Shown here in pieces: positions 1,972 to 58,252 of a stretch of 64,000 nucleotides of DNA. A program made the translations under genes and the position numbers. The notes below the pieces were generated by a model. That model was not told the DNA's origin. It saw nothing but the letters and a program-made list of their open reading frames with translations, and did not search any database. Source of the DNA: Myxococcales bacterium (GTDB taxonomy: Bacteria; Myxococcota_A; Polyangia; Polyangiales; JADJMO01); contig JAEUKC010000022.1 of NCBI GenBank assembly GCA_016794445.1, forward strand, positions 1,133-65,132, written 5' to 3'. How positions within the stretch are numbered: the first letter of the stretch is position 1; every line of letters begins with the position of its first letter.

Positions 1972-2028
1972 TCCCTCGACCGGCAGCGGTGGCAAAAGGT
2001 CCGGTCTCGATGGTACCGTCAGACCTGC

Positions 2029-31822: not shown

Positions 31823-34800
31823 ATGCAATCGCCCGAGCGGCTCGGCCGCAGCTTCGTCATCCTCGGTTCGCTCGGTCTCGCCACCTGGCTCGCCCTCTTC
31901 TCCACCGGTCGCGGCGAGGGGCTTTTCCGCGGGCTCTACTCCACCGCGCAGGCCGCGCCCGCCCAGAAGGGGCAGAAGAAGGGCCCCTACGCCCTGTCCA
32001 AGGCGCTGGTCGTCAAGCGCACCCTGGAGCTGATCTCCGACGAGTACGTCGACCCGAAGCGGGTGGTCCCCCACAACCTCCTCCTCGCGGCCCTCAACTC
32101 GGTCCAGCGCGACGTGGCCCAGGTGCTCGTGCACGTGGAGCCGGGCGGGCAGGTCGCCAAGATCCGCGTCGAGGACAAGGAGCTCTCGCTCGAGATCAAG
32201 GAGGTCAACGGCCCCTGGGACGTGCTGGCCAAGATCCGCACCGTGTTCCAGTTCCTGGAGCTCCACCTCAAGGACTCGCCCGACATCGACCTGCGCGAGG
32301 TCGAGTACGCCGCCTGCAACGGCATGCTCAAGACCCTCGACCCCCACTCGGTGCTGTTCTCGCCGGAGGCCTACAAGGACTTCAGCGTCGGCACGAGCGG
32401 CAAGTTCGGCGGCCTCGGGATCGTCATCCAGATCCGCGACAAGGTCCTCACCGTGATGAACACGATGCCGGGCACGCCCGCCGCCGAGGGCGGCCTCCTG
32501 AAGGGCGACCGCATCATCCAGATCAACGGCGAGTCCACCACCACGATGGGCATCAACGAGGCCGTGCAGCGCCTCCGCGGCGACCCGGACACCGACGTCA
32601 CGCTGGTCATCAAGCGCGAGGGCAAAGACGGCTTCCCGAGCAAGCCGTTCAAGCTCACGCGCAAGGAGATCAAGGTCGCGAGCGTCGAGAGCAAGGCCCT
32701 CGACGACGGTGTCGGCTACATCCGCCTCAAGCAGTTCGCCGAGCAGACCGCGCCCGACATGCAGAAGGCGATGGCCGAGCTCAAGGCCTCGGGGCACGAC
32801 AAGGGCCTCGTCCTCGACCTGCGCGGCAACCCGGGCGGCCTGCTCGACCAGGCGCGCCGCGTGGTCGACGCCTTCGTGAAGACCGGCGAGATCGTCATCC
32901 AGGACGGCCGCAAGGAGGGCCGCATCGTCGACGATGCCAAGGACGACAAGAACGAGCCCGGCTACCCCATCGTGGTGCTGGTGAGCTCGGGCTCGGCGAG
33001 CGCGAGCGAGATCGTCGCGGGTGCGCTCAAGAACCTCGACCGCGCGGTCATCGTCGGCGAGACCACGTTCGGCAAGGGCAGCGTGCAGAAGGTCGAGAAG
33101 AACATCCCGCCCGAGGGCGCGGCGCTCAAGCTCACCATCGCGCAGTACCTCACCCCCGGCGACATCAGCATCCAGGGCGTCGGCATCGTGCCCGACATCG
33201 AGCTCCTGCCGATGACGGTCGACCTCCAGGAGCTCAACCTCACCGCCGACGCGCCCTACTACCGCGAGAGCGATCTGAGCGCGCACCTGTCGAACGCCAA
33301 GGCCAAGGCCGGCCAGAAGCCGGTCGAGATCCTGCAGTACGCGCTCTCCCGCGAGGACCGCGCGGCCCTCCGCGAGCGCGGCGGCGACCCGGAGGACCAG
33401 TTCGCGCTCGACGCCCAGATCGCCTTCGCGCGCCGGTTCCTCAAGACCGTCTCGAGCAGCGACGGCGCCAAGCGCCTCGACCTCATCAAGAAGGCCAAGG
33501 GCTTCCTCGACGGCTACAAGTCCGAGGAGATGAAGAAGGTCGAGGCCGACCTCGTGAAGCTCGGCATCGACTGGTCCGACGGCGACGCGAGCGGCGCCTT
33601 CGACCCGAGCAAGATCAGCGTCACCGTCGAGCCGAGCAAGGCGAACGGCGAGGTGAACGCGGGCGACGCGCTCGAGCTCAAGGTCACCGTCACCAACAAC
33701 GGCGCGGTGCCGCTCTACAAGCTCCGCGGCCAGACCAAGAGCGACGCCGGCATCTTCGACGGCAAGGAGTTCGTGTTCGGCAAGGTCGAGCCCGGCAAGT
33801 CGCGCAGCTGGACGAGTCCGCTCGGCTGGTGCGAGACCGAGGGCCACAAGGCCGGCGTCACCGCCCCCAAGGACGCGCCGCGCGTCTGCAAGATCCCGAA
33901 GGACACGGTCACTCGCGCCGACGTCATCAAGGTGAAGTTCGAGGAGGCGCACGAGCACGCCCCCAAGGACGCCGAGACCCGCACCACCATCAAGGCGCTG
34001 GCCCGGCCGTCGTTCGCCTACAGCTACGCGGTCGTCGACGACGTGCAGGGCAACGGCGACGGCCAGCTGCAGGTCGGCGAGAAGGCCTCGCTCTACCTCA
34101 CGGTCAAGAACACGGGCACCGGCAAGTCCTGGGAGACGGAGGCCTCGCTCCACAACCTCTCGGGCGACGGGCTCCTCCTGCGCGACGCGCGGTTCGACCT
34201 CTCCAACATGGCGCCCGGCGAGGAGCGCAAGGTGCGCTTCACGTTCGACGTCAACCCGGTGAAGGACGAGGCCAAGGTCTCGCTCGCCATCCGCGACGCC
34301 GACCTCCGCGAGTCGGCGACCGAGCGCATCGTGATGCCGATCCGCCCGTCGCTGAGCGTGACGAGCGCCTCCGGCATCCTCAAGGTGGAGTCGCTGGTCG
34401 ACCTGTTCGAGTCGCCGGTCGCCGGGGGCAAGCCGTTCGGTCAGCTCCCCAAGGACGGCATCCTCGGCGTCACCGGCCTCGTGTCGGACTTCGTGCGCGT
34501 GGATCTCGGCAACGGCCGCTTCGCGTTCGCCAGCAAGACCGCGGGCAAGGTCGGCAAGGGCGACCCGCCCAAGCCCAAGGACCCGAAGAAGCCCGTGCAA
34601 CCGTGGATCGACCTGCTCACGCACTCGCCGCCCTCGATCGAGGTCGACGCGATCGATCTGGTGGTCAAGAGCGACAAGGTGAAGCTCAAGGGCTTCGCGA
34701 TCGACCCCGACAAGGTGATCGACGCCTACGTCTTCGTCGGCTCGCGCAAGATCTTCTACAAGAGCAACAAGGGCGGCGCCGACGCCAAGAAGCTGCCGTT

Positions 34801-40483: not shown

Positions 40484-40700
40484 GCGGCACCGCGACGAGC
40501 TCGAGCCCGTGCAGCGTGAGCAGGTCGGAGAGCGTCGGGTGCACCACGAAGGGACGGTGCCTGAACCAGGCGACGGCGCGGCCGGAGGCGTCACACAGGA
40601 TCTCGTCTGGTGTCGACAGCGTGCCTGCGCGCACGACATCGAACGGGACGACCGTGAGCGGCGAGGTGAGCCCGACCGCGCGCAGCATCTCATGCGGCAC
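40404..40700 (-). CDS. hypothetical small protein (uncertain)
   Basis: 98-aa ORF overlapping the upstream small gene by 11 nt. High GC3 in the first two thirds. The 3' end overlaps the convergent DUF2132 gene. Confidence 0.3.
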   Translation of the reverse strand: MPHEMLRAVGLTSPLTVVPFDVVRAGTLSTPDEILCDASGRAVAWFRHRPFVVHPTLSDLLTLHGLELVAVPPSRWVGASRGRAPRPRRAPPGAAAGT

Positions 40701-40911
40701 GGCGATCCTCGTAGCGACCGTCGGCCTGCTCGATGCGCACTGTGACCGGCGCGCGCTGCTTGGCGGCCAGCTCTTCGGCGAGCGTCAGGGCGTGCTCGAT
40801 CGCGCGCTCCTTGGTGCACAGACGGTCGACCATGCGTTCGTAGAGAGGATCGACGATGACGACCCACGCGCGCTGGCGCGGCACGACGCGGATGATGTGG
40901 CCTTTGCTCAT
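40690..40911 (-). CDS. hypothetical small protein (DUF2188-like pattern)
   Basis: MSKGHIIRVVPRQRAWVVIV...VTVRIEQADGRYEDRRAA. Internal ATG of track ORF 40690..41049. Confidence 0.45.
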   Translation of the reverse strand: MSKGHIIRVVPRQRAWVVIVDPLYERMVDRLCTKERAIEHALTLAEELAAKQRAPVTVRIEQADGRYEDRRAA

Positions 40912-41084
40912 GCCTGTCGAAGGAGCAACCCGCGGGCCACGGCCTGCTTCTCGGTGCGGGCGAACCGGGAACGCTCGGGCTCGTGCACCTTGCAACCAGG
41001 CATCGTGCAGCCGAGCAATCACGGGGGCTTTGCCGGGTGGGTGACCCACGCGCCAGGCTCGTTGCGTGCATGCACGATGCCGAG

Positions 41085-41753
41085 TCAGGGGGTGCTCGAG
41101 GACGGCGGCGCGCTGGCCGAGGCGCCTGCGGCCGGCGAGGCGCTCGCGGCGGCTGCGGCGCGGGCCTTGGCGAACGAGGGCGACGCGGGCTTGCGCGCGT
41201 CGAGCGCGAGGTTCAGGAGCAGCACGTTCACCCGCGGCTCACCGAGGAAGCCGAGCGTGGAGCCCTCGGTGTGCTGGGCGACGAGCCCCTGCACCTCGGC
41301 CTCGCTCATGCCGCGGGCCTTGGCGATGCGAGGGATCTGGATCGCCACCGCCTCGGGCGAGAGGTGCGGGTCGAGCCCGCTCGCGCTCTTGGTGACGAGA
41401 TCGACCGGGATCGGACCCGTGGCGCCGGAGTCGCGCAGCGCCTTCACGCGCGCCTCGACCTCGTCCTTCAGCGCGGCCTGGAGGGGGCCGTAGTTCGAGC
41501 CCGACGAGTAGGTGACCCCAGTGGCCGGATCGACGCTCGCGCCGGACGGCCGACCCCAGAAGTACTCGGGCCACAGCGTCGGATCGCCGAAGGTCTGACC
41601 GATCAGCGCGGAGCCCTTCTGGCCGACCAGGCTCCCGCTCGCCTGCTTCGGGAACAGCACGCGCGCAGCCGCGGTGACCAGGCCGGGGTAGACGCCGCAG
41701 CACAAGATCAGCAGCAGCAGCGTGACGACGAAGGTCTGACGGAGGAGCTTCAT
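41085..41753 (-). CDS. kdpC: K+-transporting ATPase subunit C
   Basis: N-terminal TM MKLLRQTFVVTLLLLILCCGVYPG and KdpC-like SASGLDPHLSPEAV. Follows kdpB. Confidence 0.9.
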   Translation of the reverse strand: MKLLRQTFVVTLLLLILCCGVYPGLVTAAARVLFPKQASGSLVGQKGSALIGQTFGDPTLWPEYFWGRPSGASVDPATGVTYSSGSNYGPLQAALKDEVEARVKALRDSGATGPIPVDLVTKSASGLDPHLSPEAVAIQIPRIAKARGMSEAEVQGLVAQHTEGSTLGFLGEPRVNVLLLNLALDARKPASPSFAKARAAAAASASPAAGASASAPPSSSTP

Positions 41754-41765
41754 GGCGGACTCGAT

Positions 41766-43874
41766 TCAGGCGAGGTGCAGGGCGTTGACCACGAGGTCGA
41801 TGGCCTTGATGGCGACGAACGGCGCGACAACGCCGCCGAGCCCGTAGACGAGGAGGTTTCTCCGCAGGAGCGCCGCTGCCCCGAGCGGGCGGTAGAACAC
41901 GCCGCGGAGCGCGAGCGGGATCAGCGCGACGATCACCAGCGCGTTGAAGATGACCGCCGAGAGGATCGCGCTCGTGGGCGAACCCAGCCGCATGACGTTG
42001 AGCGCCCAGAAGGCCGACGAGCGGGGCCCGCCCTGCGCCACCTGGAACGCGACGATGCCCGTGAACATGGCCGGGAGTATCGAGAAGTACTTGGCCACGT
42101 CGTTGGCGATCGAGAACGTGGTGAGCGCCCCGCGGGTCATCAGGAGCTGCTTGCCGATCTCGACGATCTCGATCAGCTTGGTCGGGTCGCTGTCGAGGTC
42201 GACCATGTTGCCGGCCTCCTTGGCCGCCTGGGTGCCGGTGTTCATCGCCACCCCGACGTCGGCTCGCGCGAGGGCCGGCGCGTCGTTGGTGCCGTCGCCC
42301 GTCATCGCGACGAGGCGCCCACCCTCCTGCATCTGGTGGATGTAGGCGAGCTTCGCCTCGGGGGTGGCCTCGGCGAGGAAGTCGTCGACGCCCGCTTCGG
42401 CCGCGATCTTCTTGGCGGTGAGCGGGTTGTCGCCGGTGATCATCACGGTCTTGATCCCCATGGCGCGGAGGCGCTCGAAGCGGTCCTTCATGCCGGGCTT
42501 CACTGTGTCCTTCAGGTAGACGACGCCGAGGACGCGATCGCCGTCGGCGACGACGAGCGGGGTGCCGCCCTCGTTGGCGACGCGCGCCACGAGGCCCTGG
42601 AGATCCGCGGGGATCACGCCCTTCTTGCTGCGCACGAGCGCGGTCACCGTGTCGCCGGCGCCCTTGCGCAGGAGGCGCTCGCCGGCGTCGATCCCGCTCA
42701 TGCGCGTGGCGGCGGTGAACGCGACGAACGTGGCGCCCTCGGGGAGCTTCGGCATGATGCCGCGCTCGGTCGCGAGCGCGACGATGCTCTTGCCCTCCGG
42801 GGTCTCGTCGGCGAGCGAGGCGAGCGTGGCGATCTCGGCGAGCTCGTGCTCGTCGACCCCGGCGACCGGCAGGAACTGGAACGCCTGCCGGTTGCCGTAG
42901 GTGATGGTGCCGGTCTTGTCGAGCATGAGGACGTCGATGTCCCCGGCGGCCTCGACCGCGCGCCCCGACGTCGCGAGCACGTTGTGCTGCACGAGGCGGT
43001 CCATCCCGGCGATGCCGATGGCCGACAGCAGGCCGCCGATGGTGGTCGGGATGAGGCACACGAGCAGCGCCACGAGGGCCGCGATGCCGAGCGAGCCCTT
43101 GAAGAAGCGCGCGTAGGGCTCGAGGGTCGCGACCGCGACCAGGAAGATCAGCGTGAGCGCGGCGAGCAGGATGGTGAGCGCGATCTCGTTGGGGGTCTTC
43201 TGCCGCTCGGCGCCCTCGACGAGCGCGATCATGCGGTCGATGAAGCCCGCCCCCGGGTCCTGCCCGATCTGGATCTTCAGCCAGTCGCTCTGCACGCGGG
43301 TGCCGCCGGTCACCGCGCTGCGGTCGCCGCCCGCCTCCCGCACCACGGGCGCCGACTCGCCGGTGATGGCGCTCTCGTCGACCGAGGCGATGCCCTCGAG
43401 GATCTCGCCGTCGGCGGGGATCATCTGACCCGCCTTCACGTAGACCACGTCACCACGCCGGAGCTCGGTCGCGGGGATCTCCTCGCCCCCGTCCTCGAAG
43501 CCGATGGTGAGGATCGGGGTCTCCTCGCCAGAGCGGCGGATGCGCCGGGCCATGGTGGTGGTGCGCATCTTGCGCAGGGTGTCGGCCTGGGCCTTGCCGC
43601 GCCCCTCCGCCATCGCCTCGGCGAAGTTGGCGAACAGCACGGTGAACCACAGCCAGACGATCAGCTGCACGGAGAAGCGCACGTCGGTGGCCGTGCCGCG
43701 CAGGACGTCGCGCACGAACAGCACCGTGACGAGCAGGCTCCCGACCTCGACGACGAACATGACCGGGTTCTTCGCCATGGTGCGCGGGTCGAGCTTCTTG
43801 AAGCTCTCGACGATGGCGGGGCGGAGGATCGCGGGATCCCAGAGCGAGTGCTGCTTGCGGTGATTCTTGGCCAT
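41766..43874 (-). CDS. kdpB: K+-transporting P-type ATPase subunit B
   Basis: [27 protein letters not shown] motifs. 702 aa. Confidence 0.97.
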
Positions 43875-43878
43875 GGCT

Positions 43879-45594
43879 TCAGCGGGTCATCTGGATGTGC
43901 TCGACGATCGGACCGATCGCGAGCGCCGGGAAGAAGGTCAGCGCGCCGACGATGAGGATCACGCCGACGAGGAGGCCGACGAACAGGGTGTTGTCCACGG
44001 GGAACGAGCCGGCGCCCGCGGGTACGAGCTTCTTCTTGGCCATGTTGCCCGCGATGGCGAGCACGGCGATGATGAGCGGGAAGCGCCCGACGTGCATCGC
44101 GAGGCCGAGGGTGAGCGTGGAGAACACCGGGTGTTGCGTGGAGAAGGCGGTGAGCCCCGCGAACGCGCTGCCGTTGTTCGCCGTCGCGCTGGTGTAGGCG
44201 TAGAGCACCTCGCTGAACCCGTGCGGGTGCGGCCCGCCATCGGGTCCCGTGTTCAGGATCCCCGATCTACCGGCGTCGGTCAGGAGACCCGCCGCGGTGA
44301 AGAGCAGGATCGAGAACGCGGGGATCAGCACGTAGATCGAGGCGAAGCGCACGTCGCGGCTGTCGATCTTCTTGCCGAGGTATTCCGGCGTGCGCCCCAC
44401 CATCAGGCCCGCGAGGAACACCGCCAGGATGACGTAGACGAGGATGCCGTACATGCCGGCGCCGACGCCGCCGAAGACGATCTCGCCGAGCTGCATGTTC
44501 AAGAGCGGCACGAGCCCGCCGAGCGGCGTGTAGCTGTCGTGCATGGCGTTGACCGCCCCACACGAAGCGCCCGTGGTGACCACCGTGAAGAGGGCGCTGT
44601 CGGGGACACCGAACCGCACCTCCTTGCCCTCGAGGTTGGTCGCAACGGCGGCGCCCGCCCGGGCCAGCACCGGGTTGCCCTTGGTCTCGAACCAGGTCGC
44701 GGCGACGATGCCGAGGACTGCGATGAACGTCATCGCCCCGAACACCGCCCAGCCGTGCTTCGGGCTCTTGACCATGCCGAGCGTCACGCACAGCGCCGCC
44801 GGGATCGCCCAGATCGAGACCATCTGCACGAAGTTTGAGAGCGGGGTCGGGTTCTCCCACGGGTGGGCGCTGTTCGCGTTGAAGTAGCCGCCGCCATTGG
44901 TGCCGAGCATCTTGATGGCCTCCTGCGAGGCCACCGGCCCGCGGAGGACGGACTGGGTGGAGCCGTCGAGCGCCGTCCACGACGCCGGGCCCTCCCACGT
45001 CTGGATGACGCCCTGCGAGACCAGGAACAGCGCGTAGAACAGGCAGATCGGCAAGAGCACGTAGAGGTGCACGCGCACGAGATCGACCCAGAAGTTGCCG
45101 AGGGTGTCGGCCTGCGAGCGCGCGAGGCCGCGGATCAGCGCGATGGCCACGCACATCCCGACGCCGGCCGAGAAGAAGTTGTGCGAGGTGAGCCCGACCG
45201 CCTGCGAGGCGTAACTCATGGTCGTCTCGCCGCCGTAGCTCTGCCAGTTGGTGTTCGTGGTGAACGAGACCGAGGTGTTGAACGCGAGCCACGGCGCGAC
45301 GGCGTCGAGCTTGGTCGGATTGAACGGCAGCTCGTGCTGCATCCGGAGGACCGCGTAGGTGACGACCTGGGTGAGCAGCGAGAACGCGAGCATGGCGCCC
45401 GCGTACGCGCGCCACGTGTGCTCCCTGGCTTCCTCGATCCCCGCCGCGCGGTAGATGCCGCGCTCGAGGAACCCGAGGACCTTGCGGGAGGTGTGGTTCT
45501 CCCCGGCGAAGACCCGGGTCATGAACCGGCCGAGCGGCACGGCCACGAGCACGAGGACCGCGAAGAACACCAGGTCGAGGACGAGCACGCGCAT
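43879..45594 (-). CDS. kdpA: K+-transporting ATPase subunit A
   Basis: Internal ATG ([25 protein letters not shown]...). 571 aa polytopic KdpA-like sequence. The start overlaps the kdpF stop (TGATG). Confidence 0.95.
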
Positions 45595-45683
45595 CAGAAG
45601 CGCTCCGGGCGAGCGAGCACGAAGAACAGGTAGGCGGCGAGCAGGACGCTCACGCCGAGGCCTAGGACGAGGTCGAGGGACAT
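45594..45683 (-). CDS. kdpF: K+-transporting ATPase subunit F (29 aa)
   Basis: Not in the ORF track. MSLDLVLGLGVSVLLAAYLFFVLARPERF has the typical single TM and the RPERF ending, directly upstream of kdpA. Confidence 0.8.
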   Translation of the reverse strand: MSLDLVLGLGVSVLLAAYLFFVLARPERF

Positions 45684-45698
45684 GGCAGGTTCCCGCGG

Positions 45699-45782
45699 TC
45701 AGATTGCGTCGCAGAGGCGGGCGAAACCCACCACCGCGACGAAGAGCGCCAGCGTCAGCAAGAGGATCCAGAGATCGGTCAT
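45699..45782 (-). CDS. candidate 27-aa hydrophobic micro-protein upstream of kdpF
   Basis: Not in the ORF track. MTDLWILLLTLALFVAVVGFARLCDAI. GGAG lies 8 nt upstream of the ATG. Sits 15 nt upstream of kdpF. Confidence 0.4.
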   Translation of the reverse strand: MTDLWILLLTLALFVAVVGFARLCDAI

Positions 45783-45799
45783 GGGACGAGCTCCGTGGA

Positions 45800-45814
45800 G
45801 CAGGAACCAGACCA
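45800..45814 (-). promoter_or_regulatory. candidate sigma-54 (-24/-12) promoter for the micro-ORF-kdpFABC unit
   Basis: Minus strand TGGTCTGGTTCCTGC: GG and GC at the exact consensus spacing (TGGCAC-N5-TTGC). The GC lies 18 nt upstream of the micro-ORF ATG. Confidence 0.4.
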
Positions 45815-45895: not shown

Positions 45896-45913
45896 TCGTG
45901 CGGCCGTGCACGA
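45896..45913. promoter_or_regulatory. candidate enhancer (UAS) palindrome TCGTGCG-GCCG-TGCACGA
   Basis: 18/22 identical to the element at 51397-51418. Lies about 83 nt upstream of the 45814 -24 element. NtrC-like TGCAC half-sites. Confidence 0.45.
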
Positions 45914-45916
45914 ACC

Positions 45917-47743
45917 TCAGGCGGGGAGCCGCAGCGTGAACGTGCTGCCCTCGCCGACCTGGCTCTTGACCTCCAGGTTCCCGCCGTGGCGTTCGGCGAT
46001 CTCCCGCGCGATGGCCAGACCGAGGCCGTGACGCCCGCGGAGCTGGGCCGGCTCCGCACCCGTCCAGTGGCGCTCGAACACGTGGGGCAGGTGCTCCTCG
46101 GCGATGCCTTCGCCGTCGTCGCGCACGCCGAGCACGACGTGGGCAGCGTCTCGCTGCGCGAAGAGCCGCACCGTGCCGCCCGGCTCGGTGTGCCGGATCG
46201 CGTTCGAGACCAGGTTCCCGAGCAGGATGTGGATCTGCTCGACGTCTAGGGAGACGGGCGCGACCTCCTCGGGGTCCACCACGAGGGCGACGCGCTTCTC
46301 GGCGGCGAGCGCCCGGTGCGCGCGTTCGACCTCGGCGAGGAGGGCGCGCGGCTCCACGAGCTCGCGGTGCAGCTCGCCGGCCTCGCGCTCGATGCGCACG
46401 AGATCGAGCAGCTCCTCCACGGTCCGCTGCAGGCGCTCGGTCTCCTCGCAGGCCGTGTTCGCGAGCTCGCGCTGCAGCGCCGTCAGGCCCTCGCTCTCCT
46501 CGAGGAGCATGTGGGTCGCGAGGCGGAGCGAGGTCAGCGGGGTCTTGAGCTCGTGGCTCACCGTGGCGACCACGTCGCTCTTGAGGGCGTCGATGCGGCG
46601 GTAGCGGGTGACGTCCTCCGCCACGACGATCACGCCCCGGCCCGCGGACTCCTCCACGTGCAGCGGGGAGGCCCGCACGAGGAAGAAGCGCTCGGCGCCG
46701 CCGGCTGCGGTCCACTGCATGGCCTCGCTCAAGCTGTCGGGCAAGAGCGGCTTGTCGTCGGCGAGCACGCGGTCCCGCGCCGCGAGGATCCGCTCCGGCG
46801 GCTCGACGCCGAGGCGCCGCTGCTCGTCGCGATCGCCCGGGGTGAGGCCGAACACCGCCTCGGCGGCCTCGTTGGTGAGGAGGATGTCGCCACTGCCACC
46901 GAAGACGATCACGGGGTCGGTCATGGCGGCGACGGTGGCGCGCGACAGATCGCGCGCCGCGAGCAGCTCGCCGAGGCTGCTCTCTCGGTAGAGGCGCAGC
47001 TTGTCCTGCATGCGGTTGAGCGCGTCGGCGAGGCCGCGCAGCTCGCTCAGGTCGGGCAGCGCGAGCTTCGTCTCGAACCGGCCCTCACCGATGGCCCGGG
47101 CTCGATCGGTGAAGGTGGAGATCGGGTCGATGATCACCCGCGGGAAGCGGAAGGTGAGCCACCCGGTCAGGAGGAGGGCGATGGCGGCGGCGAGCACCGA
47201 AAGCGAGCGCGTGCGCTGGGCAAGCCGGCGCGCCTCGGCGTCGGCCCCGACCATGTTCCGCTGGTTCGCGTCTCGGATGGCGGCGATGCTGGCCTTCAGC
47301 TTCTGGAATCGGGGCAGGAGCTCGCCGAAGTAGCCCGCGCTCCGCTGCTCGATCGGCCGCGCGAGCACGCGGTCGGCGGTGATCACATAGTCTTTGTATG
47401 CATCCTCGACGAAGCGAACGAGGTCGCCCTCTCCCGGGAGGGTCACGTTGCGCGCCTCGGCGGCGAGGGCGCCCTCGAACTTGCGGCGGTGGTCGGTGAG
47501 CATCGGGGTGCCGATGTCCACGCGCCCGCTCGCCACGAACAACGCCCCCGAGTCCTGCCGCTCGAGCGCCTCGTTCATCTCCTGGCACGCGACGACCGAG
47601 GCGTAGTTCTCGCGCAGGATGAGCCCGACCGCGCCGCCGAGCCGGTCGAGCGCCAGCGTCGAGAGCACCGAGACCACGAGCACGGTCGCGGCCATCGCGA
47701 GGCCGAGGCGCACGAGGCGACCGCGGAGCGACGCGCGGGTCAT
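45917..47743 (-). CDS. HAMP/PAS sensor histidine kinase
   Basis: Two TM segments flanking a periplasmic-type domain. H-box SHELKTPLTSL. HATPase DDGEGI, GLGLAIAREI. Overlaps the activator gene stop by 4 nt. Confidence 0.9.
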   Translation of the reverse strand: MTRASLRGRLVRLGLAMAATVLVVSVLSTLALDRLGGAVGLILRENYASVVACQEMNEALERQDSGALFVASGRVDIGTPMLTDHRRKFEGALAAEARNVTLPGEGDLVRFVEDAYKDYVITADRVLARPIEQRSAGYFGELLPRFQKLKASIAAIRDANQRNMVGADAEARRLAQRTRSLSVLAAAIALLLTGWLTFRFPRVIIDPISTFTDRARAIGEGRFETKLALPDLSELRGLADALNRMQDKLRLYRESSLGELLAARDLSRATVAAMTDPVIVFGGSGDILLTNEAAEAVFGLTPGDRDEQRRLGVEPPERILAARDRVLADDKPLLPDSLSEAMQWTAAGGAERFFLVRASPLHVEESAGRGVIVVAEDVTRYRRIDALKSDVVATVSHELKTPLTSLRLATHMLLEESEGLTALQRELANTACEETERLQRTVEELLDLVRIEREAGELHRELVEPRALLAEVERAHRALAAEKRVALVVDPEEVAPVSLDVEQIHILLGNLVSNAIRHTEPGGTVRLFAQRDAAHVVLGVRDDGEGIAEEHLPHVFERHWTGAEPAQLRGRHGLGLAIAREIAERHGGNLEVKSQVGEGSTFTLRLPA

Positions 47744-49062
47744 CGAAGGCCGTAGCGCTCGCGCTTGCGATAGAGGGTGGACGGGTCGACGCCGAGCGCG
47801 CGGGCCGCCGCGTCCAGGGTCGGGTGCCGCGCGAGCACGGCCGCGATGTGCCGCGCCTCGGCGGACTCGAGCGACTCGTCTCCGGCGACCGCGCCGCGGG
47901 TCGTCGCCCGCACCTCCTCGGGGAGCAGATCGGGCGAGAGGATCTCTCCGTGGGCGAGCAGCGAAGCGCGCTCGAGGACGTTGCCGAGCTCGCGGATGTT
48001 CCCCGGCCAGTCGTAGGCGACGAGCGCCCCCATCGCCTCGGGCGAGACGGACGTGAGGCGCCCGCCCGAGCGGTGCGGCTGATCGAGCAGCGCCGTGACG
48101 AGGCCGGGGATGTCCTCGCGGCGCTCACGCAGCGACGGGAGGCGCACCGAGACCACGTTGAGCCGGTAGAACAGGTCTTCGCGGAACGTGCCCGCGCCGA
48201 TCGCCGCCCGCAGATCGCGGTGGGTCGCGGCGATCACCCGCGCCTCCGACCGTCGCGGCTCGGTGTCGCCGACGCGCACGTACTCGCGCTCCTCGAGCAA
48301 CCGCAGGAGCTTCCCCTGCAGCTCCTTGCCGAGGTCGCCCACCTCGTCGATGAACAGGGTGCCGTTCTTGGCGGCCTCGACGTAGCCCGCGCGCGCCTGG
48401 TCGGCGCCGGTGAACGCGCCGCGCGCGTGGCCGAACAGCTCGTTCTCGATCAGGTTCGGGCTGATGGTCGCGCAGTTCACCGTGACGAACGGCCGATCCG
48501 CGCGCGGCGAGTGCTGGTGCACGTGCCGCGCGAGCACGCCCTTGCCCGTACCGGTCTCGCCGAGCACCAGGATCGTCGCGTCGGTCGCCGCCGCGCGCTC
48601 CGCGAGCAGGTAGGCCTGCTGCACGGCCGGGCTGTGCGACGGCAACGGCGCGCCCCGCGGCTTGCGCTTCACCTCGCTGAGCTCCTGGCGCAGGCGCGCC
48701 GCGTCGAGCACGCGCGACACCACGTGCTTCACCGCGGCCGGCGTGAACGGCTTCGGCAGGTAGTCGGCCGCGCCCGCGCGCATGGCCTCGACCGCGTTGT
48801 CGATGGTCGCGAACGCAGTCATCACGACCACGGCGGTCCCCGGCGCCTCCTGCGCGAGCGTGCGGGTCACCGTGAGCCCGTCGATCCCCCCGAGTCGCAG
48901 GTCGATGAGCGCGAGATCGGGGGGGTTGCGTCGGGCGGCCGCGAGCCCCGCCTCGCCGCTCGGCGCGAGCGTCACCGTGTACCCCGCCGACTCCAGGCAG
49001 AGGCGCAGGGTCTTGCGGATGGACTCCTCGTCGTCGACGACGAGCACGTGGGCCTTCGTCAT
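47740..49062 (-). CDS. NtrC-family sigma-54-dependent response regulator
   Basis: Canonical receiver (VLVVDDEE...LALIDLRL...LPKPF). GETGTGKGVLARHVH, GAFTGA. C-terminal HTH (AAARALGVDPSTLYRKRERYG). Confidence 0.95.
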   Translation of the reverse strand: MTKAHVLVVDDEESIRKTLRLCLESAGYTVTLAPSGEAGLAAARRNPPDLALIDLRLGGIDGLTVTRTLAQEAPGTAVVVMTAFATIDNAVEAMRAGAADYLPKPFTPAAVKHVVSRVLDAARLRQELSEVKRKPRGAPLPSHSPAVQQAYLLAERAAATDATILVLGETGTGKGVLARHVHQHSPRADRPFVTVNCATISPNLIENELFGHARGAFTGADQARAGYVEAAKNGTLFIDEVGDLGKELQGKLLRLLEEREYVRVGDTEPRRSEARVIAATHRDLRAAIGAGTFREDLFYRLNVVSVRLPSLRERREDIPGLVTALLDQPHRSGGRLTSVSPEAMGALVAYDWPGNIRELGNVLERASLLAHGEILSPDLLPEEVRATTRGAVAGDESLESAEARHIAAVLARHPTLDAAARALGVDPSTLYRKRERYGLR

Positions 49063-49066
49063 GCTC

Positions 49067-50029
49067 TCACCCTACCTCTCTCGAGGGCTTTGTTCCTGGA
49101 TCGTCGTCGTTCGCTCTGTTCCGGTCGGACGCGCGCTGCACCATGGGATGGTCGAACGTTCGCGCGAGCCAGCGATCGAGCTGCGCCCCGCTCGCCCCGG
49201 TGAACAGCACGTACGTGGGGCCGTTCTCTCTGCGCCGACCGACCGCCATCGAGCCCGTCTCGCCGAGCCCGAGCGGGAAGAGCACGGCGTCGAGCTCCGC
49301 GTCGGCTCGTCGCGGCGAGGTCGGGTCGTCGACCACCAGGATTCGTGGCGTCGAGGACAGCACGAGCGGCGCGAGCGGCGCGCCACCGTAGCTGGCCAGG
49401 CGGGCGAGGCCATCCCACGGTCGCGGCCCGTCCGAGACCCCGCTGTCGAGCGCGAGCGCCGCGCGATAGGCGCGGTCGGCGTCCTCGTCCCGACCCGCGA
49501 GCTCCCGGCACAGACCGAGCAACGTCATCGCCTCCGGATCGAGCGGCGCGAGCGCCCGCGCCCGGGACAGGAACGGCTCGGCGTCGGCCGGGCTGCCCGA
49601 GGCGAGCACCCGGCGCGCCGCGGCCATCGCCGCCGCGTAGTCGAGCGCGCCTTCGTTCGAGGCTCGTCGACTGCGCAGCACGCGCTCCAGCGTCTGCCGC
49701 AGCTCCCGAGGCGAGAACGGCTTACCCATCACGTCCGCGATCGAGAGCCGCAAGAGCTCGACGAGGAGGCGGGTCGTGAGCAGCGTGGTCATCACGACGA
49801 TGGGCAGCTCGGGATGGTCGCGTCGCAGCGCGCGCAAGCCCTCCGTGGGCTCGTCGCCGAACGCGCGGAGCTCGACGACGGCGACCTCGACCTCGTGGTC
49901 CCGATCGAGGAGCGCGCGCGCCTCGTCCACGCTCGACGCGGTGACGACGGTGAACCCGGCGGCCACCAGCGCCTGATCGAGCACGTGCTGCACGGTCGCG
50001 TCCGGCTCGACGACGAGGACGCGGCTCAC
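49067..50029 (-). CDS. receiver-like (pseudo-receiver, Asp to Glu) protein with TPR-like C-terminal region
   Basis: VSRVLVVEPDATV...EVAVVELRAFGD...VVMTT...MGKPF: Glu where the phospho-Asp is expected, while Thr and Lys are conserved. GTGA overlap with the upstream stop. Confidence 0.65.
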   Translation of the reverse strand: MSRVLVVEPDATVQHVLDQALVAAGFTVVTASSVDEARALLDRDHEVEVAVVELRAFGDEPTEGLRALRRDHPELPIVVMTTLLTTRLLVELLRLSIADVMGKPFSPRELRQTLERVLRSRRASNEGALDYAAAMAAARRVLASGSPADAEPFLSRARALAPLDPEAMTLLGLCRELAGRDEDADRAYRAALALDSGVSDGPRPWDGLARLASYGGAPLAPLVLSSTPRILVVDDPTSPRRADAELDAVLFPLGLGETGSMAVGRRRENGPTYVLFTGASGAQLDRWLARTFDHPMVQRASDRNRANDDDPGTKPSREVG

Positions 50030-51162
50030 GACGGCTCCTTGTCCCGGTCCGCGGAGGGGTCGCCGACGACCACGACGTCGACCTCCGGCACGGTGCGCAT
50101 GAACTCCGCCAGCACCGAGCCCCGCAGCCGCTCCCGGAGCCTGGACTGGCGCGTCCGGCCGAACACGGCGTGGGTGATCCCCTTCCTGCGCGCGAACTCG
50201 CGCAGCGCCGCGACGACGTCGTCTCCCTCGAGCCGCACGACCTCGGCGCCGAGCTCCTTGGCGAGCCGGATGTTCTCGGTCAGCGAGCGCAGGCTCGCGG
50301 CGTCGATGCGATCGGGGGTCTCGTCGCGGGTGCGCACGTAGACGACGAACCAGCGGCTCGCGAGGCCTCCGGCGAGCCGCGCCCCCTGCCGGAGCAGCCG
50401 CCGCGTCGCGCCGGGCTGCGACGACATGGAGACCATCACGCGCTCGGCGGCGACCGCCCCCGACTCCTCCTCCGGGCTGCGACGCGCACGGCGCTCGACG
50501 GCGTTGGCCACCTCGCGCAGGGCGAGCTGGCGCAGCGCGACCAGGTTCTTCTCGGTGAAGAAGCGACGCAGGGCGTGCTCCACCTTCTCGGGCGGGTAGA
50601 TCTTGCCCTCGCGGAGGCGCTCGGTGAGCTCGCTCGGCGGCAGGTCGACGACGACCACCTCGTCCGCGCGCTGCACGACGCGGTCGGGGATGCGCTCGCG
50701 CACGTCGACCCCGGTCTCGCGCAGCACGAGGTCGTGCAGGCTCTCGAGGTGCTGCACGTTGAGGGTCGCGATGACGCTGATCCCGGCGTCGAGGATCTCC
50801 TCCACGTCCTCCCACCGCTTGTCGTGCCGCGAGCCGGGGACGTTGGTGTGGGCGAGCTCGTCGACGAGCGCGACGGCCGGGCGACGCGCGAGCAGGGCGT
50901 CGAGGTCGAGCTCCTCGAGCGGTACGCCCCGGTACTGCAGCGTCCGGCGCGGCAACACGACGAGCCCCTCGAGCGCGGCGGCGGTCTCCTTGCGCCCGTG
51001 GGTCTCGACGATCCCGCAGACGACGTCGACCCCCTCCTCGGACAGGCGCCGCCCCTCTCGCAGCATCGCGACCGTCTTGCCGACCCCCGCGGCCATGCCG
51101 AGGTAGATCTTGAGAGGCGCCCGGCGACGCGCTCGCAAGAGGGTGAGGAAATCGTCGGCCAC
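50026..51162 (-). CDS. kdpD: stand-alone KdpD N-terminal sensor domain plus Usp domain (no kinase core)
   Basis: KIYLGMAAGVGKT Walker A, LVDELAHTN, ISVIATLNVQHLES, then a Usp-like half. 378 aa with no TM, HisKA or HATPase part. Confidence 0.9.
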   Translation of the reverse strand: MADDFLTLLRARRRAPLKIYLGMAAGVGKTVAMLREGRRLSEEGVDVVCGIVETHGRKETAAALEGLVVLPRRTLQYRGVPLEELDLDALLARRPAVALVDELAHTNVPGSRHDKRWEDVEEILDAGISVIATLNVQHLESLHDLVLRETGVDVRERIPDRVVQRADEVVVVDLPPSELTERLREGKIYPPEKVEHALRRFFTEKNLVALRQLALREVANAVERRARRSPEEESGAVAAERVMVSMSSQPGATRRLLRQGARLAGGLASRWFVVYVRTRDETPDRIDAASLRSLTENIRLAKELGAEVVRLEGDDVVAALREFARRKGITHAVFGRTRQSRLRERLRGSVLAEFMRTVPEVDVVVVGDPSADRDKEPS

Positions 51163-51202
51163 GGTCGGAAGGGTCGCTCTGCCCGCGCGCGGGCGTCGAG
51201 TC

Positions 51203-51295
51203 TCACGAGCCGAGCTGCTCCGGCCGCGCGAGCACGAAGACCCCGTAGATCACGAAGACCATGCCCGAGATGGCGCCGAGGAGGACGTCTGCCAT
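51203..51295 (-). CDS. KdpF-like 30-aa micro-protein upstream of the kdpD N-domain gene
   Basis: Only the tail of track ORF 51203..51760. MADVLLGAISGMVFVIYGVFVLARPEQLGS shares the hydrophobic helix plus the F/VVLARPE(R/Q) ending with the kdpF product at 45594-45683. Confidence 0.55.
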   Translation of the reverse strand: MADVLLGAISGMVFVIYGVFVLARPEQLGS

Positions 51296-51307
51296 GCCGA
51301 CGCTCCT

Positions 51308-51323
51308 TGCAGCGCGTGGGCCA
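51308..51323 (-). promoter_or_regulatory. candidate sigma-54 promoter for the kdpF-like / kdpD-N / regulator operon
   Basis: Minus strand TGGCCCACGCGCTGCA versus consensus TGGCAC-N5-TTGCA, exact spacing. The GC lies 14 nt upstream of the micro-ORF ATG. Confidence 0.55.
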
Positions 51324-51397
51324 GCAGGTGGTCGAGGCTGCTGGAACCCGGCTCCGGACCGGGTTCGGGCGGCGCCGCATGACGGCGTCTCGGCGGG

Positions 51398-51415
51398 TCG
51401 TGCAGCGGTGCACGA
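51398..51415. promoter_or_regulatory. candidate enhancer (UAS) palindrome TCGTGCA-GCGG-TGCACGA
   Basis: Perfect 7-bp inverted repeat between the two divergent -24/-12 elements. Near-identical copy at 45896-45913. Confidence 0.5.
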
Positions 51416-51456
51416 ATCGGCCCCGACGTCGCGTGAAGGTCGGGGGTCCCGAGAAC

Positions 51457-51472
51457 TGGCGCATGGCTTGCA
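51457..51472 (+). promoter_or_regulatory. candidate sigma-54 promoter for the KimA-like gene
   Basis: TGGCGCATGGCTTGCA: 14 of 16 positions match TGGCAC-N5-TTGCA including GG, GC and the spacing. About 60 nt upstream of ATG 51534. Confidence 0.6.
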
Positions 51473-51533
51473 AATTCGCACGACGTCCTCGCAGTCGCGC
51501 ACGAAGTCCACCGCGCAGAACCCGCACTCCTCG

Positions 51534-53588
51534 ATGCCCAAGCGTCTCCGCCACCTCCTGTTCGGCGCCCCCAAGGACGTCCGCGATCCCGAAGCCTTCC
51601 ACAAGATCTCGCTGGTCGCCCTGCTCGCCTGGGTCGGCCTCGGCGCCGATGGTCTCTCGTCGTCGGCGTACGGCCCCGACGAGTCGTTCCGCGCGCTCGG
51701 CGCCCACACCGGCCTCGCAGTGTTCCTCGCGCTCGCCACGGCGCTCACCGTCTTCATCATCAGCTACGGGTACAGCCGGATCATCGAGCAGTTCCCGAGC
51801 GGCGGTGGCGGCTACGTCGTCGCCTCGCGGCTCCTCGGCCCGCGGGTCGGGGTGGCCTCGGGCGCCGCGCTCCTCGTCGACTACGTGCTGACCATCACCG
51901 TCTCGATCGCGAGCGGCGCCGACGCGATCTTCTCGTTCCTGCCGCCGAGCCTGCTCCACTTCAAGCTGCCCGCCGCCGCGGCCGGTCTCGCCTTCCTCAC
52001 CATCCTCAACCTGCGCGGCGCGAAGGAGTCCGTCACCTCGCTCGTGCCGGTGTTCATGGTGTTCCTGGTGACCCACGCGATCATGCTCGGCGTGGTGCTG
52101 TTCGGGCACCTCGGCGACGTCGCGCCGACCGCCCACCGCGTGCAAGAGAGCCTCCACGGCTCCGCCAAGACCCTCGGCACCGTCGGCCTCCTCTCGCTGT
52201 TCATGCGCGCCTACTCGATGGGCGGAGGCACCTACACGGGCATCGAGGCGGTCTCCAACGGCGTCGCCATGATGCGCGAGCCGCGCGTACAGACCGCCAA
52301 GCGCACGATGGTGCTGATGGCCGTGTCGCTGGCCGTCACGGCCGGTGGCATCATGCTCGCGTACCTCTTGATGGCGGCCACGCCCGAGCCGGGCAAGACC
52401 ATGAACGCGGTGCTCCTCGAGCGCGTCGCGAGCCACTGGCAGCTGTTCGGGCTGCCGCTCGGCAAGGTGTTCGTGATCGTGGCGCTCGTGTCCGAGGGCG
52501 CCCTCCTGTTCGTCGCCGCGCAGGCCGGCTTCCTCGACGGCCCGCGCGTCATGGCCAACATGGCGACCGACTCGTGGCTCCCCCACCGCTTCGCCGCCCT
52601 CTCCGACCGCCTCTCCATGCGCAACGGCGTGCTGCTCATGGCGATCTCGTCGGGCGCGCTCCTCGTCTACACGCGGGGCGACGTGTCGAAGCTCGTCGTC
52701 ATGTACTCGATCAACGTGTTCCTCACGTTCTCGCTCTCCAACCTCGCCATGTCCAAGCTGTGGATCTCGCGGCGGAAGACCGAGGCGGGGGCCCTCAAGC
52801 ACCTGCCCGCACACGTGATCGCGCTGGCGCTCTGCGTGACCATCCTCGGCGTCACGGTCTACGAGAAGTTCCGCGAGGGCGGCTGGCTCACGCTCGTCGT
52901 GACGAGCGCGGTCGTGGCCGTGTGCTTCTACATCAAGCGCCACTACGAGGCCGTCCGGATCGCGCTGCGCCGCCTCGACCAGGATCTCCCCTCCCCCGTC
53001 GAGGTCGAGAGCACCACGTCCGAGGGGCGCGAGGCGATCGCGTTCGTGCACGGCGAGACCGAGAACCTCGCCGAGCACCACAGCGAGCTCGATCCCGACC
53101 CGGAGCGACCGGTGGCGGTGCTGTTCGTCGGCGGCTACAGCGGGCTCGGTCGCCACGCGTTGCTCACGCTCCTGCGCATGTTCCCCGACCACTTCGGCGG
53201 CGTGGTGTTCGTCAGCGTCGCGGTCGCGGACTCCGAGTCGTTCAAGGGTCCCGACCAGCTCGAGGCCCTGCAGAACCGCACGCGCGAGCACCTCCTGCGC
53301 TACGAGCGCTACGCGCAGTCGCTCGGCCTGCGCGCAGCGAGCGCGTTTGCGGTCGGCACCGAGGTCGCGGTCGAGGGCGTCCGCGTGGCCGAGGTGCTGC
53401 GGCGTCGCTACCCGAAGCCGCTGTTCGTGGCCGGGCAGATCGTCTTCGAAGAAGAGACCCAGATCTCACGCATCCTGCACAACGAGACGGCGTTCATGGT
53501 GCAGCGCCGCCTGCAGCGCGCCGGGATGCCGATGATCGTGGTGCCCGTTCGCCTCGCGCTCGAGGGAGAGCAGAAGGCCGCGGCGTGA
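51534..53588 (+). CDS. kimA: KimA-type (APC superfamily) K+/H+ symporter homolog with cytoplasmic C-terminal domain
   Basis: Collinear with B. subtilis KimA as I remember it: KRLRHLLFGAP..., LSSSAYGP, FPSGGGGYVVAS, LLVDYVLTITVSIASGADAI, NLRGAKES, C-terminal ILHNETAFMVQRRL. 684 aa. Confidence 0.8.
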   Translation: MPKRLRHLLFGAPKDVRDPEAFHKISLVALLAWVGLGADGLSSSAYGPDESFRALGAHTGLAVFLALATALTVFIISYGYSRIIEQFPSGGGGYVVASRLLGPRVGVASGAALLVDYVLTITVSIASGADAIFSFLPPSLLHFKLPAAAAGLAFLTILNLRGAKESVTSLVPVFMVFLVTHAIMLGVVLFGHLGDVAPTAHRVQESLHGSAKTLGTVGLLSLFMRAYSMGGGTYTGIEAVSNGVAMMREPRVQTAKRTMVLMAVSLAVTAGGIMLAYLLMAATPEPGKTMNAVLLERVASHWQLFGLPLGKVFVIVALVSEGALLFVAAQAGFLDGPRVMANMATDSWLPHRFAALSDRLSMRNGVLLMAISSGALLVYTRGDVSKLVVMYSINVFLTFSLSNLAMSKLWISRRKTEAGALKHLPAHVIALALCVTILGVTVYEKFREGGWLTLVVTSAVVAVCFYIKRHYEAVRIALRRLDQDLPSPVEVESTTSEGREAIAFVHGETENLAEHHSELDPDPERPVAVLFVGGYSGLGRHALLTLLRMFPDHFGGVVFVSVAVADSESFKGPDQLEALQNRTREHLLRYERYAQSLGLRAASAFAVGTEVAVEGVRVAEVLRRRYPKPLFVAGQIVFEEETQISRILHNETAFMVQRRLQRAGMPMIVVPVRLALEGEQKAAA

Positions 53589-53643
53589 TCGTGCGCCGCT
53601 GCACGAGCTACGGCCTGGGTACACATTCTGCTTCGTTCTCGTC

Positions 53644-53910
53644 GTGTCCCCCTACCGACGCCCCGATCGTGCACCGCGTCCCGAGCCCGAGGACGACCGC
53701 GAAGAGTCGGTCTTCGTCACCTCGATCATCGTGATCGCCCTTGCCGTGGCCGCGTTCCAGCGCGTGAGCCACGGCGGCGCCTTCGACGCCATCGAGACGC
53801 TCGCGTGGCTGGTCGCGATCGTGCTGCTGGTGGAGCGCGCGCTCAGGGCGCGAGCCGCGGCAGGATCGCGCGGAACATCCACTCACCGACCGCCCACGAG
53901 TACAGGTTGA
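53644..53910 (+). CDS. possible small two-TM membrane protein (uncertain)
   Basis: 88-aa ORF with high GC3 until it overlaps the convergent gene. Hydrophobic segments SIIVIALAVAAF and LAWLVAIVLLV. Confidence 0.3.
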   Translation: MSPYRRPDRAPRPEPEDDREESVFVTSIIVIALAVAAFQRVSHGGAFDAIETLAWLVAIVLLVERALRARAAAGSRGTSTHRPPTSTG

Positions 53911-54196
53911 CGACGAGCGCGACCGCGAACGCGCGCCGCGCGCCCAGGCCGCAGATCACGAGCGAGAGGCCCTCGAGGACCACCGCCGAAGCCTCGCCCG
54001 CGAAGATCGCGGCGTCGTGCCCGAGCACGCGCACCCACACGAACCAGAGCAGCGGGTAGCTCACCGCGTTGCCGAGCGTCGCGCCGAGGAGCGCGCGGAG
54101 CCGACGACCCGCCGGCGCGAGCGCGGCGTAGAGCGGCAGCTCGAGCGCCAGCACGAGCGGCACCATGGCGAGGAACAGACGCGTGTAGGCGCTCAC
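53843..54196 (-). CDS. hypothetical integral membrane protein
   Basis: 117 aa with 3-4 predicted TM helices and a coherent frame. Confidence 0.5.
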   Translation of the reverse strand: MSAYTRLFLAMVPLVLALELPLYAALAPAGRRLRALLGATLGNAVSYPLLWFVWVRVLGHDAAIFAGEASAVVLEGLSLVICGLGARRAFAVALVVNLYSWAVGEWMFRAILPRLAP

Positions 54197-58109: not shown

Positions 58110-58252
58110 CTGGCATTAGAGCAAACGGTGGGCCAGCTCTGCGCGACCAGAGATCAACAGCTTTGCCCTCCTTCACCTTTCAGTCTTGAAAGACTCGTTG
58201 CAGACCGAGTGCAATGAACCTGGCCGATTTGCGCTAGCGCAAGGAAGTTCGG

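Follow-up and report, generated by a model that had tools for sequence, protein, structure and literature searches.

This report concerns the 238-bp gap at positions 51296-51533 of a 64,000-nucleotide stretch of DNA (hereafter, the window; 71% GC) from an uncultured Myxococcales bacterium. The gap separates a gene for a KimA-type potassium (K+) transporter on the plus-strand side from a regulatory operon on the minus-strand side, and an earlier reading of the letters (hereafter, the original prediction) had placed two back-to-back sigma-54 promoters and several inverted repeats in it. Genes were mapped by Pfam, NCBIfam and PDB searches. The window (W) was compared with a set of related loci (L001-L026, about 25 of them from Polyangiales), its nearest relatives being Polyangiales metagenome-assembled genomes (MAGs) and Minicystis rosea (strain DSM 24000, L016). 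The region studied is approximately 95% identical in nucleotides to JADJMO010000002.1 (L001, from an uncultured 'Myxococcales bacterium' MAG). A metagenome scan with the KimA query returned one strain at 99% identity (L081, a metagenome contig), the remaining homologues being at most 74% identical; L001 and L081 belong to the same species-level group as the window and are 95% identical to it overall. The features at the locus are as follows.

51534-53588, plus strand: gene for a KimA-type K+ transporter of 684 residues (Pfam AA_permease_2).
51457-51472, plus strand: predicted -24/-12 promoter of kimA, TGGCGCATGGCTTGCA (GG at 51458-51459, GC at 51470-51471).
51398-51415: site A, a perfect 18-bp palindrome, TCGTGCAGCGGTGCACGA (TCGTGC-N6-GCACGA), candidate activator-dimer site.
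51365-51382: site B, a degenerate palindrome, TCGGGCGGCGCCGCATGA, with two arm mismatches and its centre 33 bp from site A.
51308-51323, minus strand: predicted -24/-12 promoter of the micro-ORF and kdpD-N operon, TGGCCCACGCGCTGCA, read as the reverse complement (GG at 51322-51321, GC at 51310-51309).
51203-51295, minus strand: micro-ORF of 30 residues, MADVLLGAISGMVFVIYGVFVLARPEQLGS, first gene of the regulatory operon (ATG at 51295-51293).
50026-51162, minus strand: gene for a kinase-less KdpD sensor (KdpD N-terminal domain, PF02702, 1.2e-94; Usp, PF00582).
49067-50020, minus strand, start codon approximate: gene for a REC protein (N-terminal receiver, PF00072; C-terminal half uncharacterised).
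47740-49062, minus strand: gene for an NtrC-family response regulator (REC, PF00072; AAA+, PF00158, 1.3e-64; Fis-type HTH, PF02954/HTH_8).
45917-47743, minus strand: gene for a HAMP-PAS-HisKA-HATPase histidine kinase, in a gene order that is kept in relatives.

The 684-residue product matches Bacillus subtilis KimA (6S3K) over residues 21-491 (phmmer E = 4.5e-57) and is, by homology, a predicted KimA-type K+ transporter. The KdpD-N protein matches the NCBI model NF038185, 'KdpD-like non-kinase potassium sensor' (1.8e-109, under the curated cut-off). The response regulator carries the GAFTGA loop at residue 215, and the adjoining kinase is its presumed partner. The split-KdpD arrangement is conserved in L001-L025, where the gene for the REC protein is also kept between the KdpD-N and activator genes, and it was seen again in planctomycete and Hymenobacter loci.

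Both 16-mers of the original prediction are present exactly at the positions given above, and both have the exact GG-N10-GC spacing expected of sigma-54 promoters. Compared with the consensus TGGCAC-N5-TTGCW, the kimA promoter agrees at 10 of 11 specified positions and the minus-strand promoter at 9 of 11, the departures of the latter being TGGCcC and cTGCA. The shorter pattern TGGCNC-N6-TGCW occurs five times in the 64 kb against 0.94 expected (about 5-fold; none of 100 shuffles reached five), and an activator of the cognate type, bearing GAFTGA, is encoded in the same cluster (47740-49062). No sigma-70 promoters or intrinsic terminators were found in a scan of 50900-51900. The predicted kimA transcript starts at about 51483 with a leader of about 51 nt; an Rfam scan of the whole window gave no matches and hence no c-di-AMP riboswitch ahead of kimA, and the predicted fold of the leader RNA is no more stable than those of shuffled sequences (z = 0.82).

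The two sites between the promoters give the gap its symmetry. From base composition, perfect 6+6 arms are expected 0.007 times in the window, and with up to two mismatches the palindrome is found three times (45896, 51398 and 53589) against 0.36 expected. Between the promoters, nothing but sites A and B matches with three mismatches or fewer. Measured from the GG, the nearer site is at 52 nt and the farther at 85 nt for both promoters, the nearer being site A for the plus-strand promoter and site B for the minus-strand promoter; this places the sites at about -77 and -110 relative to the predicted starts. The A-B spacing of 33 bp corresponds to about three helical turns. The gap thus holds what is looked for in an enhancer: dyad sites upstream of the promoters, conserved in orthologous promoters and helically phased. 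Site B was absent from the original prediction, and it is this site that renders the layout symmetric.

Conservation among the near-identical strains follows the same elements. Both -24/-12 elements are identical at 16 of 16 positions in L001 and L081. Site A differs from L001 at one of its 18 positions, a single change in the spacer, and its arms are invariant in both strains; the block 51367-51388, which contains most of site B, is identical to L001 at 20 of 22 positions, with the arms of site B conserved in both strains, and the kimA leader is identical at 59 of 61. The spacer DNA is only 56-67% identical to L001. There are nevertheless no insertions or deletions between the promoters in the window, L001 or L081; the spacers have diverged and yet are free of indels, which suggests that their sequence is free and their length constrained.

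The original prediction had also noted a second copy of the palindrome ahead of the kdp operon. This copy is real, and it lies upstream of a GG-N10-GC element at 45814-45799 in the following arrangement.

45896-45913: kdp upstream palindrome, on the minus strand TCGTGCACGGCCGCACGA, centre 92 nt from the kdp promoter's GG.
45799-45814, minus strand: kdp promoter, TGGTCTGGTTCCTGCT (GG-N10-GC), with equivalent elements in 12 relatives.
41085-45782, minus strand: kdp operon (Pfam KdpA, E1-E2 ATPase and KdpC).
45699-45782, minus strand: micro-ORF of 27 codons heading the kdp operon, MTDLWILLLTLALFVAVVGFARLCDAI, conserved in relatives.
45594-45683, minus strand: kdpF (matches TIGR02115 and PF09604).
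43879-45594, minus strand: kdpA (Pfam).
41766-43874, minus strand: kdpB (Pfam).
41085-41765, minus strand: kdpC (Pfam).

The strict sigma-54 regular expression missed most relatives, in which the -12 element is often GTGCA, GTGGA or GTGAA, and a relaxed scorer was used afterwards. Gene order varies among the 25 Polyangiales loci and the palindrome recurs in them either singly or as a pair spaced by 32-34 bp; such a pair is present in L002, L003, L009, L011, L012, L017, L019 and L020. In about 20 Polyangiales loci the palindrome stands upstream of sigma-54-like promoters. Elements of the form (C/T)GGCAC-N5-NTG(C/G/A) lie ahead of the kdp micro-ORF and kdpF in the 12 relatives mentioned; palindrome-linked sigma-54-like elements precede the KdpD-N operon in L016, L017, L019-L021 and L026, and a TGGTAT-N5-GTGCG element, read by eye, does so in L012-L014. 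Across the window and L001-L026 the distances from palindrome centre to GG cluster at 51-53, 60-64, 83-87 and 92-96 nt, classes that step by about one helical turn. The arrangement closest to that of the gap is found in L019 and L020, where two sites lie at 51-53 and 84-87 nt and the two GGs are 136-138 bp apart (137 bp in the window), although the flanking genes are kdpFABC on one side and, divergently, a small ORF and kdpD-N on the other. In L017 the distances are 63 and 95 nt on both sides.

As a control, all 89 permutations of the half-site were used as decoys over 396 kb. The true palindrome gave 48 matches, 28 of which had a sigma-54-like site within the distance classes, whereas the decoys gave 281 matches with three in class. 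The activator gene (GAFTGA, HTH_8) belongs to the same cluster in every relative. In planctomycete loci an activator-kinase-KdpD-N operon diverges from kdp, with an orthologous activator of 46-50% identity, and three of these loci (L028, L033 and L034) have TGCACGA-N4-TCGTGCA 96-98 nt from the kdp sigma-54 promoter (e.g. TGGCATGCAGGATGCA). The 7-nt half-site is that of the window in inverted order, as if the recognition helix had been conserved and the geometry of the dimer had changed; its presence beside an orthologous activator links the half-site with the kdp-linked activator in more than one phylum.

Taken together, the 16/16 conservation and the enhancer geometry bear out, by comparison, the back-to-back promoters of the original prediction as well as its view of the TCGTGCA palindrome as a candidate activator site. 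Two divergent predicted sigma-54 promoters with a common enhancer most likely occupy the gap. From their anatomy, conservation and spacing we infer activator binding, sigma-54 dependence, a potassium signal and the start sites, and we consider it probable that the gap is a bidirectional sigma-54 control region whose shared A/B enhancer switches on K+-uptake genes. The NtrC-family response regulator of 47740-49062 is the proposed binder of both sites; the assignment is by association only, the motif co-occurring with the activator gene in Polyangiales and planctomycetes. It would be phosphorylated by the adjacent HAMP-PAS kinase, whose output would probably be set by the kinase-less KdpD/Usp potassium sensor. 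Under K+ limitation the activator would oligomerise on sites A and B, loop to the sigma-54 holoenzyme and open both promoters. The plus-strand promoter would then drive the KimA importer, and the minus-strand promoter the KdpF-like micro-ORF together with the sensor, regulator and kinase genes in positive autoregulation, the minus transcript starting about 2 nt ahead of the ATG so that the micro-ORF message would be leaderless or nearly so. The same activator may fire kdpFABC through the palindrome at 45896-45913, the outcome being that KimA, Kdp and the regulatory genes are induced together.

Several known systems share parts of this design. Escherichia coli glnAp2 is a -24/-12 promoter preceded by two dimer sites, spaced by about three helical turns, for NtrC, whose oligomer depends on phosphorylation; in the NtrC box, TGCACC-N5-GGTGCA, the pentamers face inwards. 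The gap resembles glnAp2 in its two sites about three turns apart, its NtrC-family activator and the TGCAC pentamers of its half-sites, but here the pentamers face outward (GTGCA-N4-TGCAC) and the sites lie closer to the promoter. The original prediction had likened the palindrome to NtrC half-sites, and this likeness did not survive closer inspection: allowing up to three mismatches, no NtrC box occurs in 51296-51533, and the 38 matches in the window are at chance level (36 expected). The everted pentamers and the lack of a box match argue that the palindrome is not an NtrC box. With the KdpD/KdpE system of E. coli the locus shares the transporter, the KdpD N-terminal sensor domain and the expected K+-limitation signal; there, however, an OmpR-family KdpE acts at a sigma-70 promoter downstream of a one-piece KdpD kinase, whereas the window has a split sensor and the output of a sigma-54 activator. 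The kimA gene (ydaO) of B. subtilis encodes a homologous transporter under a c-di-AMP riboswitch; the Rfam scan found no riboswitch at the kimA of the window, and its predicted control is transcriptional, by sigma-54.

Divergent sigma-54 promoters served by one activator, ZraR, are present in zraP/zraSR of E. coli and Salmonella, where one transcript encodes the two-component system (PMC4987338). The gap as read here has the same plan, with one side predicted to be autoregulatory, but the signal for zraP/zraSR is zinc or envelope stress and neither the activator nor the site sequence is related. To our knowledge, the symmetric 52/85 geometry has not been described for zraP/zraSR.

The nearest counterpart is Desulfovibrio vulgaris, in which the NtrC-type regulator DVU3334 binds upstream of kdpF in DAP-chip experiments at a motif, CGTTACATTTTGTAACG, positioned at -149 (PMC3333781). 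There DVU3335 is the kinase and DVU3336 a KdpD-N/Usp protein (Rajeev et al. 2011, PMC3333781), and the kdp operon is included in the sigma-54 regulome of Kazakov et al. (2015, PMC4641369). Our locus resembles DVU3334-DVU3339.1 in having an NtrC-family REC-AAA-DBD activator with GAFTGA, a separate kinase, a kinase-less KdpD-N/Usp protein and kdpFABC, as well as in a palindrome upstream of kdpF and, by prediction, in a regulator that targets its own operon and in control of the sigma-54 type; this likeness was established by gene context. The motifs are not the same, CGTTAC-N5-GTAACG in D. vulgaris against TCGTGC-N6-GCACGA in the window. D. vulgaris has a single operon and one target, whereas the window has separate kdp, regulatory and kimA units together with a predicted bidirectional two-site enhancer, an extra REC protein and a KdpF-like micro-ORF. 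NtrC-type sigma-54 control of kdp with a split KdpD, divergent sigma-54 promoters and the NCBI non-kinase KdpD model are already known. None of the papers searched describes the kdp or kimA genes of myxobacteria as being under sigma-54; a 2018 study of Myxococcus xanthus assumed KdpDE control of kdp (PMC5857379).

A number of points weigh against this account of the gap. It is built on sequence throughout. KimA homologues at or below 74% identity (35 metagenome loci together with L007 and L009) lack the palindrome; kimA recruitment would therefore be specific to this lineage, and the support for the kimA promoter comes down to three near-identical strains and the geometry. A 2-nt leader with AGGAG ahead of the predicted start is unusual, and the real start is perhaps elsewhere. 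Since the motif is unlike that of DVU3334, and its core matches the CGTGC-N6-GCACG core of another D. vulgaris activator, DVU0679 (PMC3333781), the site can be assigned to the protein only by association. In two relatives the palindrome also stands at genes of another kind (described below), so that the remit of its binder is perhaps wider or different. Finally, rpoN is not among the genes of the 64-kb window. Sigma-54 is carried by Myxococcota. It is given as essential in M. xanthus in work cited in PMC12316311.

The start of the minus-strand transcript bears on the first alternative, namely that only the kimA promoter works, the minus-strand GG-N10-GC being a relic or a chance match, and that the operon uses a promoter further upstream with AGGAG as a normal ribosome-binding site. 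The original prediction had put the start only about 2 nt before the micro-ORF ATG, and the geometry agrees: the C of the minus-strand -12 GC is at 51309, the predicted start at about 51297 and the ATG at 51295, with AGGAG at 51307-51303, upstream of the start. This proximity, the two departures from consensus in the minus-strand element and the confinement of the micro-ORF arrangement to the window, L001 and L081 favour the alternative. AGGAG, however, reads AGGCG in both L001 and L081, so that the ribosome-binding site is not conserved, and short distances recur at other promoters of the set. Counted by eye from the C of the -12 element to the start codon, they are 18 nt for the kdp micro-ORF of the window, 13 nt at 53631-53644, 14 nt at 40925-40911, 13-14 nt in L002 (21019-21032) and 15-16 nt for kdp in L011, L012 and L014; leaders in other lineages are 23-33 nt, and the short distance is thus a tendency and no rule. 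The near-leaderless geometry is consequently no evidence against the minus-strand promoter. Its element, moreover, is fully conserved amid spacer of about 60% identity and stands at exactly 52 and 85 nt from sites B and A, its counterparts precede the kdpD-N operon in other lineages, and the scan of 50900-51900 yielded no sigma-70-like site to replace it. We regard the alternative as unlikely.

The micro-ORF itself had been called KdpF-like. It has no match to PF09604 or TIGR02115 even at E up to 10, models that the kdpF at 45594-45683 does match; the part of the claim that stands is that, outside the window and L001, tblastn ranks the kdpF genes of related loci highest (44-48% identity; E 0.006-0.04, the database being small). 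We call it a divergent KdpF-like paralogue and not a proven KdpF. By eye, seven nucleotides differ from L001, comprising five synonymous third-position changes and two replacements; a hand-calculated binomial P of about 0.045 for at least five of seven changes at third positions gives weak support to translation of the micro-ORF. In view of the arrangement in L019 and L020, it may be a remnant of a kdp operon head that was fused to the regulatory operon by rearrangement. The other micro-ORF, of about 27 codons, lies upstream of kdpF in all Polyangiales loci examined (L002-L023), including the second kdp operon of L002, and has no Pfam or NCBIfam match.

The second alternative accepts both promoters and gives the palindrome to another regulator, either a nitrogen-type NtrC or an activator of the CGTGC-N6-GCACG kind, in which case the potassium genes would be tied to another signal. 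It draws on the core motif, which in D. vulgaris belongs to DVU0679 and not to the kdp regulator DVU3334, and on L002 and L003. In these loci (L002 2400-4720; L003 at about 2930-3130) the palindrome lies between divergent sigma-54-like promoters, at 63/96 and 60/140 nt respectively, that precede genes for P-II-like proteins (weak PF00543, with a T-loop, YRG, that looks canonical) and for a CBS-like protein (MNIAFFLTPKSEVVWV...); these genes, which lie upstream of kdp by 1-3 kb, adjoin an ammonium transporter gene (Amt). It may be that the regulon reaches beyond K+ uptake, or that the regulator is a broader one. Against another regulator, the motif goes with the kdp-linked activator gene in the roughly 20 Polyangiales loci and the half-site tracks the same activator in planctomycete kdp loci, no second activator gene is present in the 21-kb loci, and the site lies ahead of the activator's own operon, as autoregulation predicts. 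On this evidence another binder is about as improbable as a silent minus-strand promoter.

The remaining repeats of the original prediction were all recovered at their coordinates.

51321-51344: repeat a, CCAGCAG-N10-CTGCTGG (14 of 21 positions identical to L001).
51344-51366: repeat b, GAACCCGG-N7-CCGGGTTC (13 of 23 positions identical to L001).
51421-51445: repeat d, CCCCGAC-N11-GTCGGGG (14 of 25 positions identical to L001).

Together with the palindrome of site A they bring the count of inverted repeats with 7-nt arms in the 238 nt to four, where 0.46 would be expected, an excess of about 10-fold (P of about 0.005 from shuffles of dinucleotides; among real 238-nt windows, 0.9% contain as many), and it could be argued from this density that all four are regulatory, as extra operators, cruciforms or sites for further factors. 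In the alignment of the window, L001 and L081, repeats a, b and d do not behave as conserved elements: nowhere in the region is divergence greater, and neither L001 nor L081 retains them as repeats. At the position of repeat d, L001 has another repeat, of 6 nt and out of register, which is disrupted in L081, and the conservation at one end of repeat b is due to its overlap with site B. All three, furthermore, lie upstream of both predicted starts and would thus not be transcribed. They are probably incidental spacer DNA, and a regulatory role for all four repeats is very unlikely. That the gap is merely GC-rich intergenic DNA with chance consensus matches is hardly credible, for although short GC-rich motifs are common at 71% GC, the shuffle and decoy controls, the conservation footprint and the exact geometry repeated in independent lineages all speak against it.

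Beyond the bidirectional control region, other matches and elements were observed. In the kimA leader (51466-51505) there are two GCACGA half-sites 22 nt apart (51478 and 51500), and a palindrome-like site with at most two mismatches (51466-51483) overlaps the kimA -12 element and the predicted start; these could be an operator or a coincidence. Two further TGGCNC-N6-TGCW matches on the minus strand (33455-33470 and 58120-58135) have no palindrome near either, one being antisense within a large plus-strand gene and the other between convergent genes, and are probably chance. The following features, the palindrome and both promoters of which were absent from the original prediction, lie at the far ends of kimA and of the kdp operon.

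53589-53606, plus strand: third perfect palindrome, TCGTGCGCCGCTGCACGA, beginning at the base after the kimA stop codon.
53617-53632, plus strand: GG-N10-GC element, GGGTACACATTCTGCT, its GG only 21 nt from the palindrome centre.
53644-53910, plus strand: small membrane ORF of 88 residues, GTG start 13 nt after the -12 C, 3' end overlapping a convergent ORF (53843-54196, minus strand).
40924-40939, minus strand: sigma-54-like promoter directly after kdpC, TGGCCCGCGGGTTGCT, one of the TGGCNC-N6-TGCW set.
40690-40911, minus strand: DUF2188 ORF of 73 residues, ATG 14 nt after the C of the -12 GC.

The arms of the third palindrome, its -24/-12 element and the layout of the ORF start are conserved in L001; the 21-nt spacing from centre to GG (53589-53632) is atypical for an enhancer. 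At the DUF2188-ORF promoter, TGCACGA half-sites are centred 52 and 74 nt upstream, and the 125 nt upstream are 100% identical in L001. A 12-bp palindrome, CGTGCATGCACG, was seen further upstream (in the region 40690-41084), and L001 has an insertion of about 330 nt near this promoter with an extra copy of the small ORF.

Homologues of KimA were also inspected in other lineages. L119 (3820-3950) has a homologue of 54% identity with a strong sigma-54-like element, TGGCGCGTGCCTTGCT, 79 nt before its start and repeats of the TTGCA/TGCAA type upstream of that element; KimA may have been put under sigma-54 independently in this lineage, with a different activator site. In L007 (about 1-2750, minus strand) and L009 (14830-15302), homologues of about 70% identity follow the small membrane ORF and a conserved AT-rich box, ATATAAAAAC, and neither the palindrome nor a sigma-54 element was found in their upstream regions. 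In three loci from Verrucomicrobiota (L051, L057 and L072) the KimA homologue lies directly after a kinase-less KdpD gene, so that the linkage of Kdp sensor and KimA recurs outside Myxococcota.

It is conceivable, though on balance doubtful, that the Polyangia have one sigma-54 potassium regulon, comprising Kdp, KimA, the DUF2188 protein and the small membrane protein, that is built on a strict enhancer grammar, a symmetric two-site module with a fixed GG-to-GG span of about 137 bp, portable between any pair of target genes. Several of its promoters would then yield mRNAs that are leaderless or nearly so, the start codon following the -12 GC by 13-18 nt, and the KdpF-like micro-protein at the head of the regulatory operon would be a functional partner of the kinase-less KdpD sensor or of KimA instead of a relic of operon rearrangement. 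The control region as read here does not overturn current understanding, its control design having already been met in other bacteria. It would extend the little-studied split-KdpD/sigma-54 control of Kdp from Desulfovibrio to Myxococcota, and the loci collected here indicate Planctomycetota and Bacteroidota as well; it would also show a KimA-type transporter drawn into that regulon. The fixed symmetric 52/85-nt layout would be a natural case of one enhancer serving two sigma-54 promoters, and the locus as a whole offers a concrete scheme, open to testing, of how an uncultured lineage of myxobacteria may wire its potassium homeostasis.

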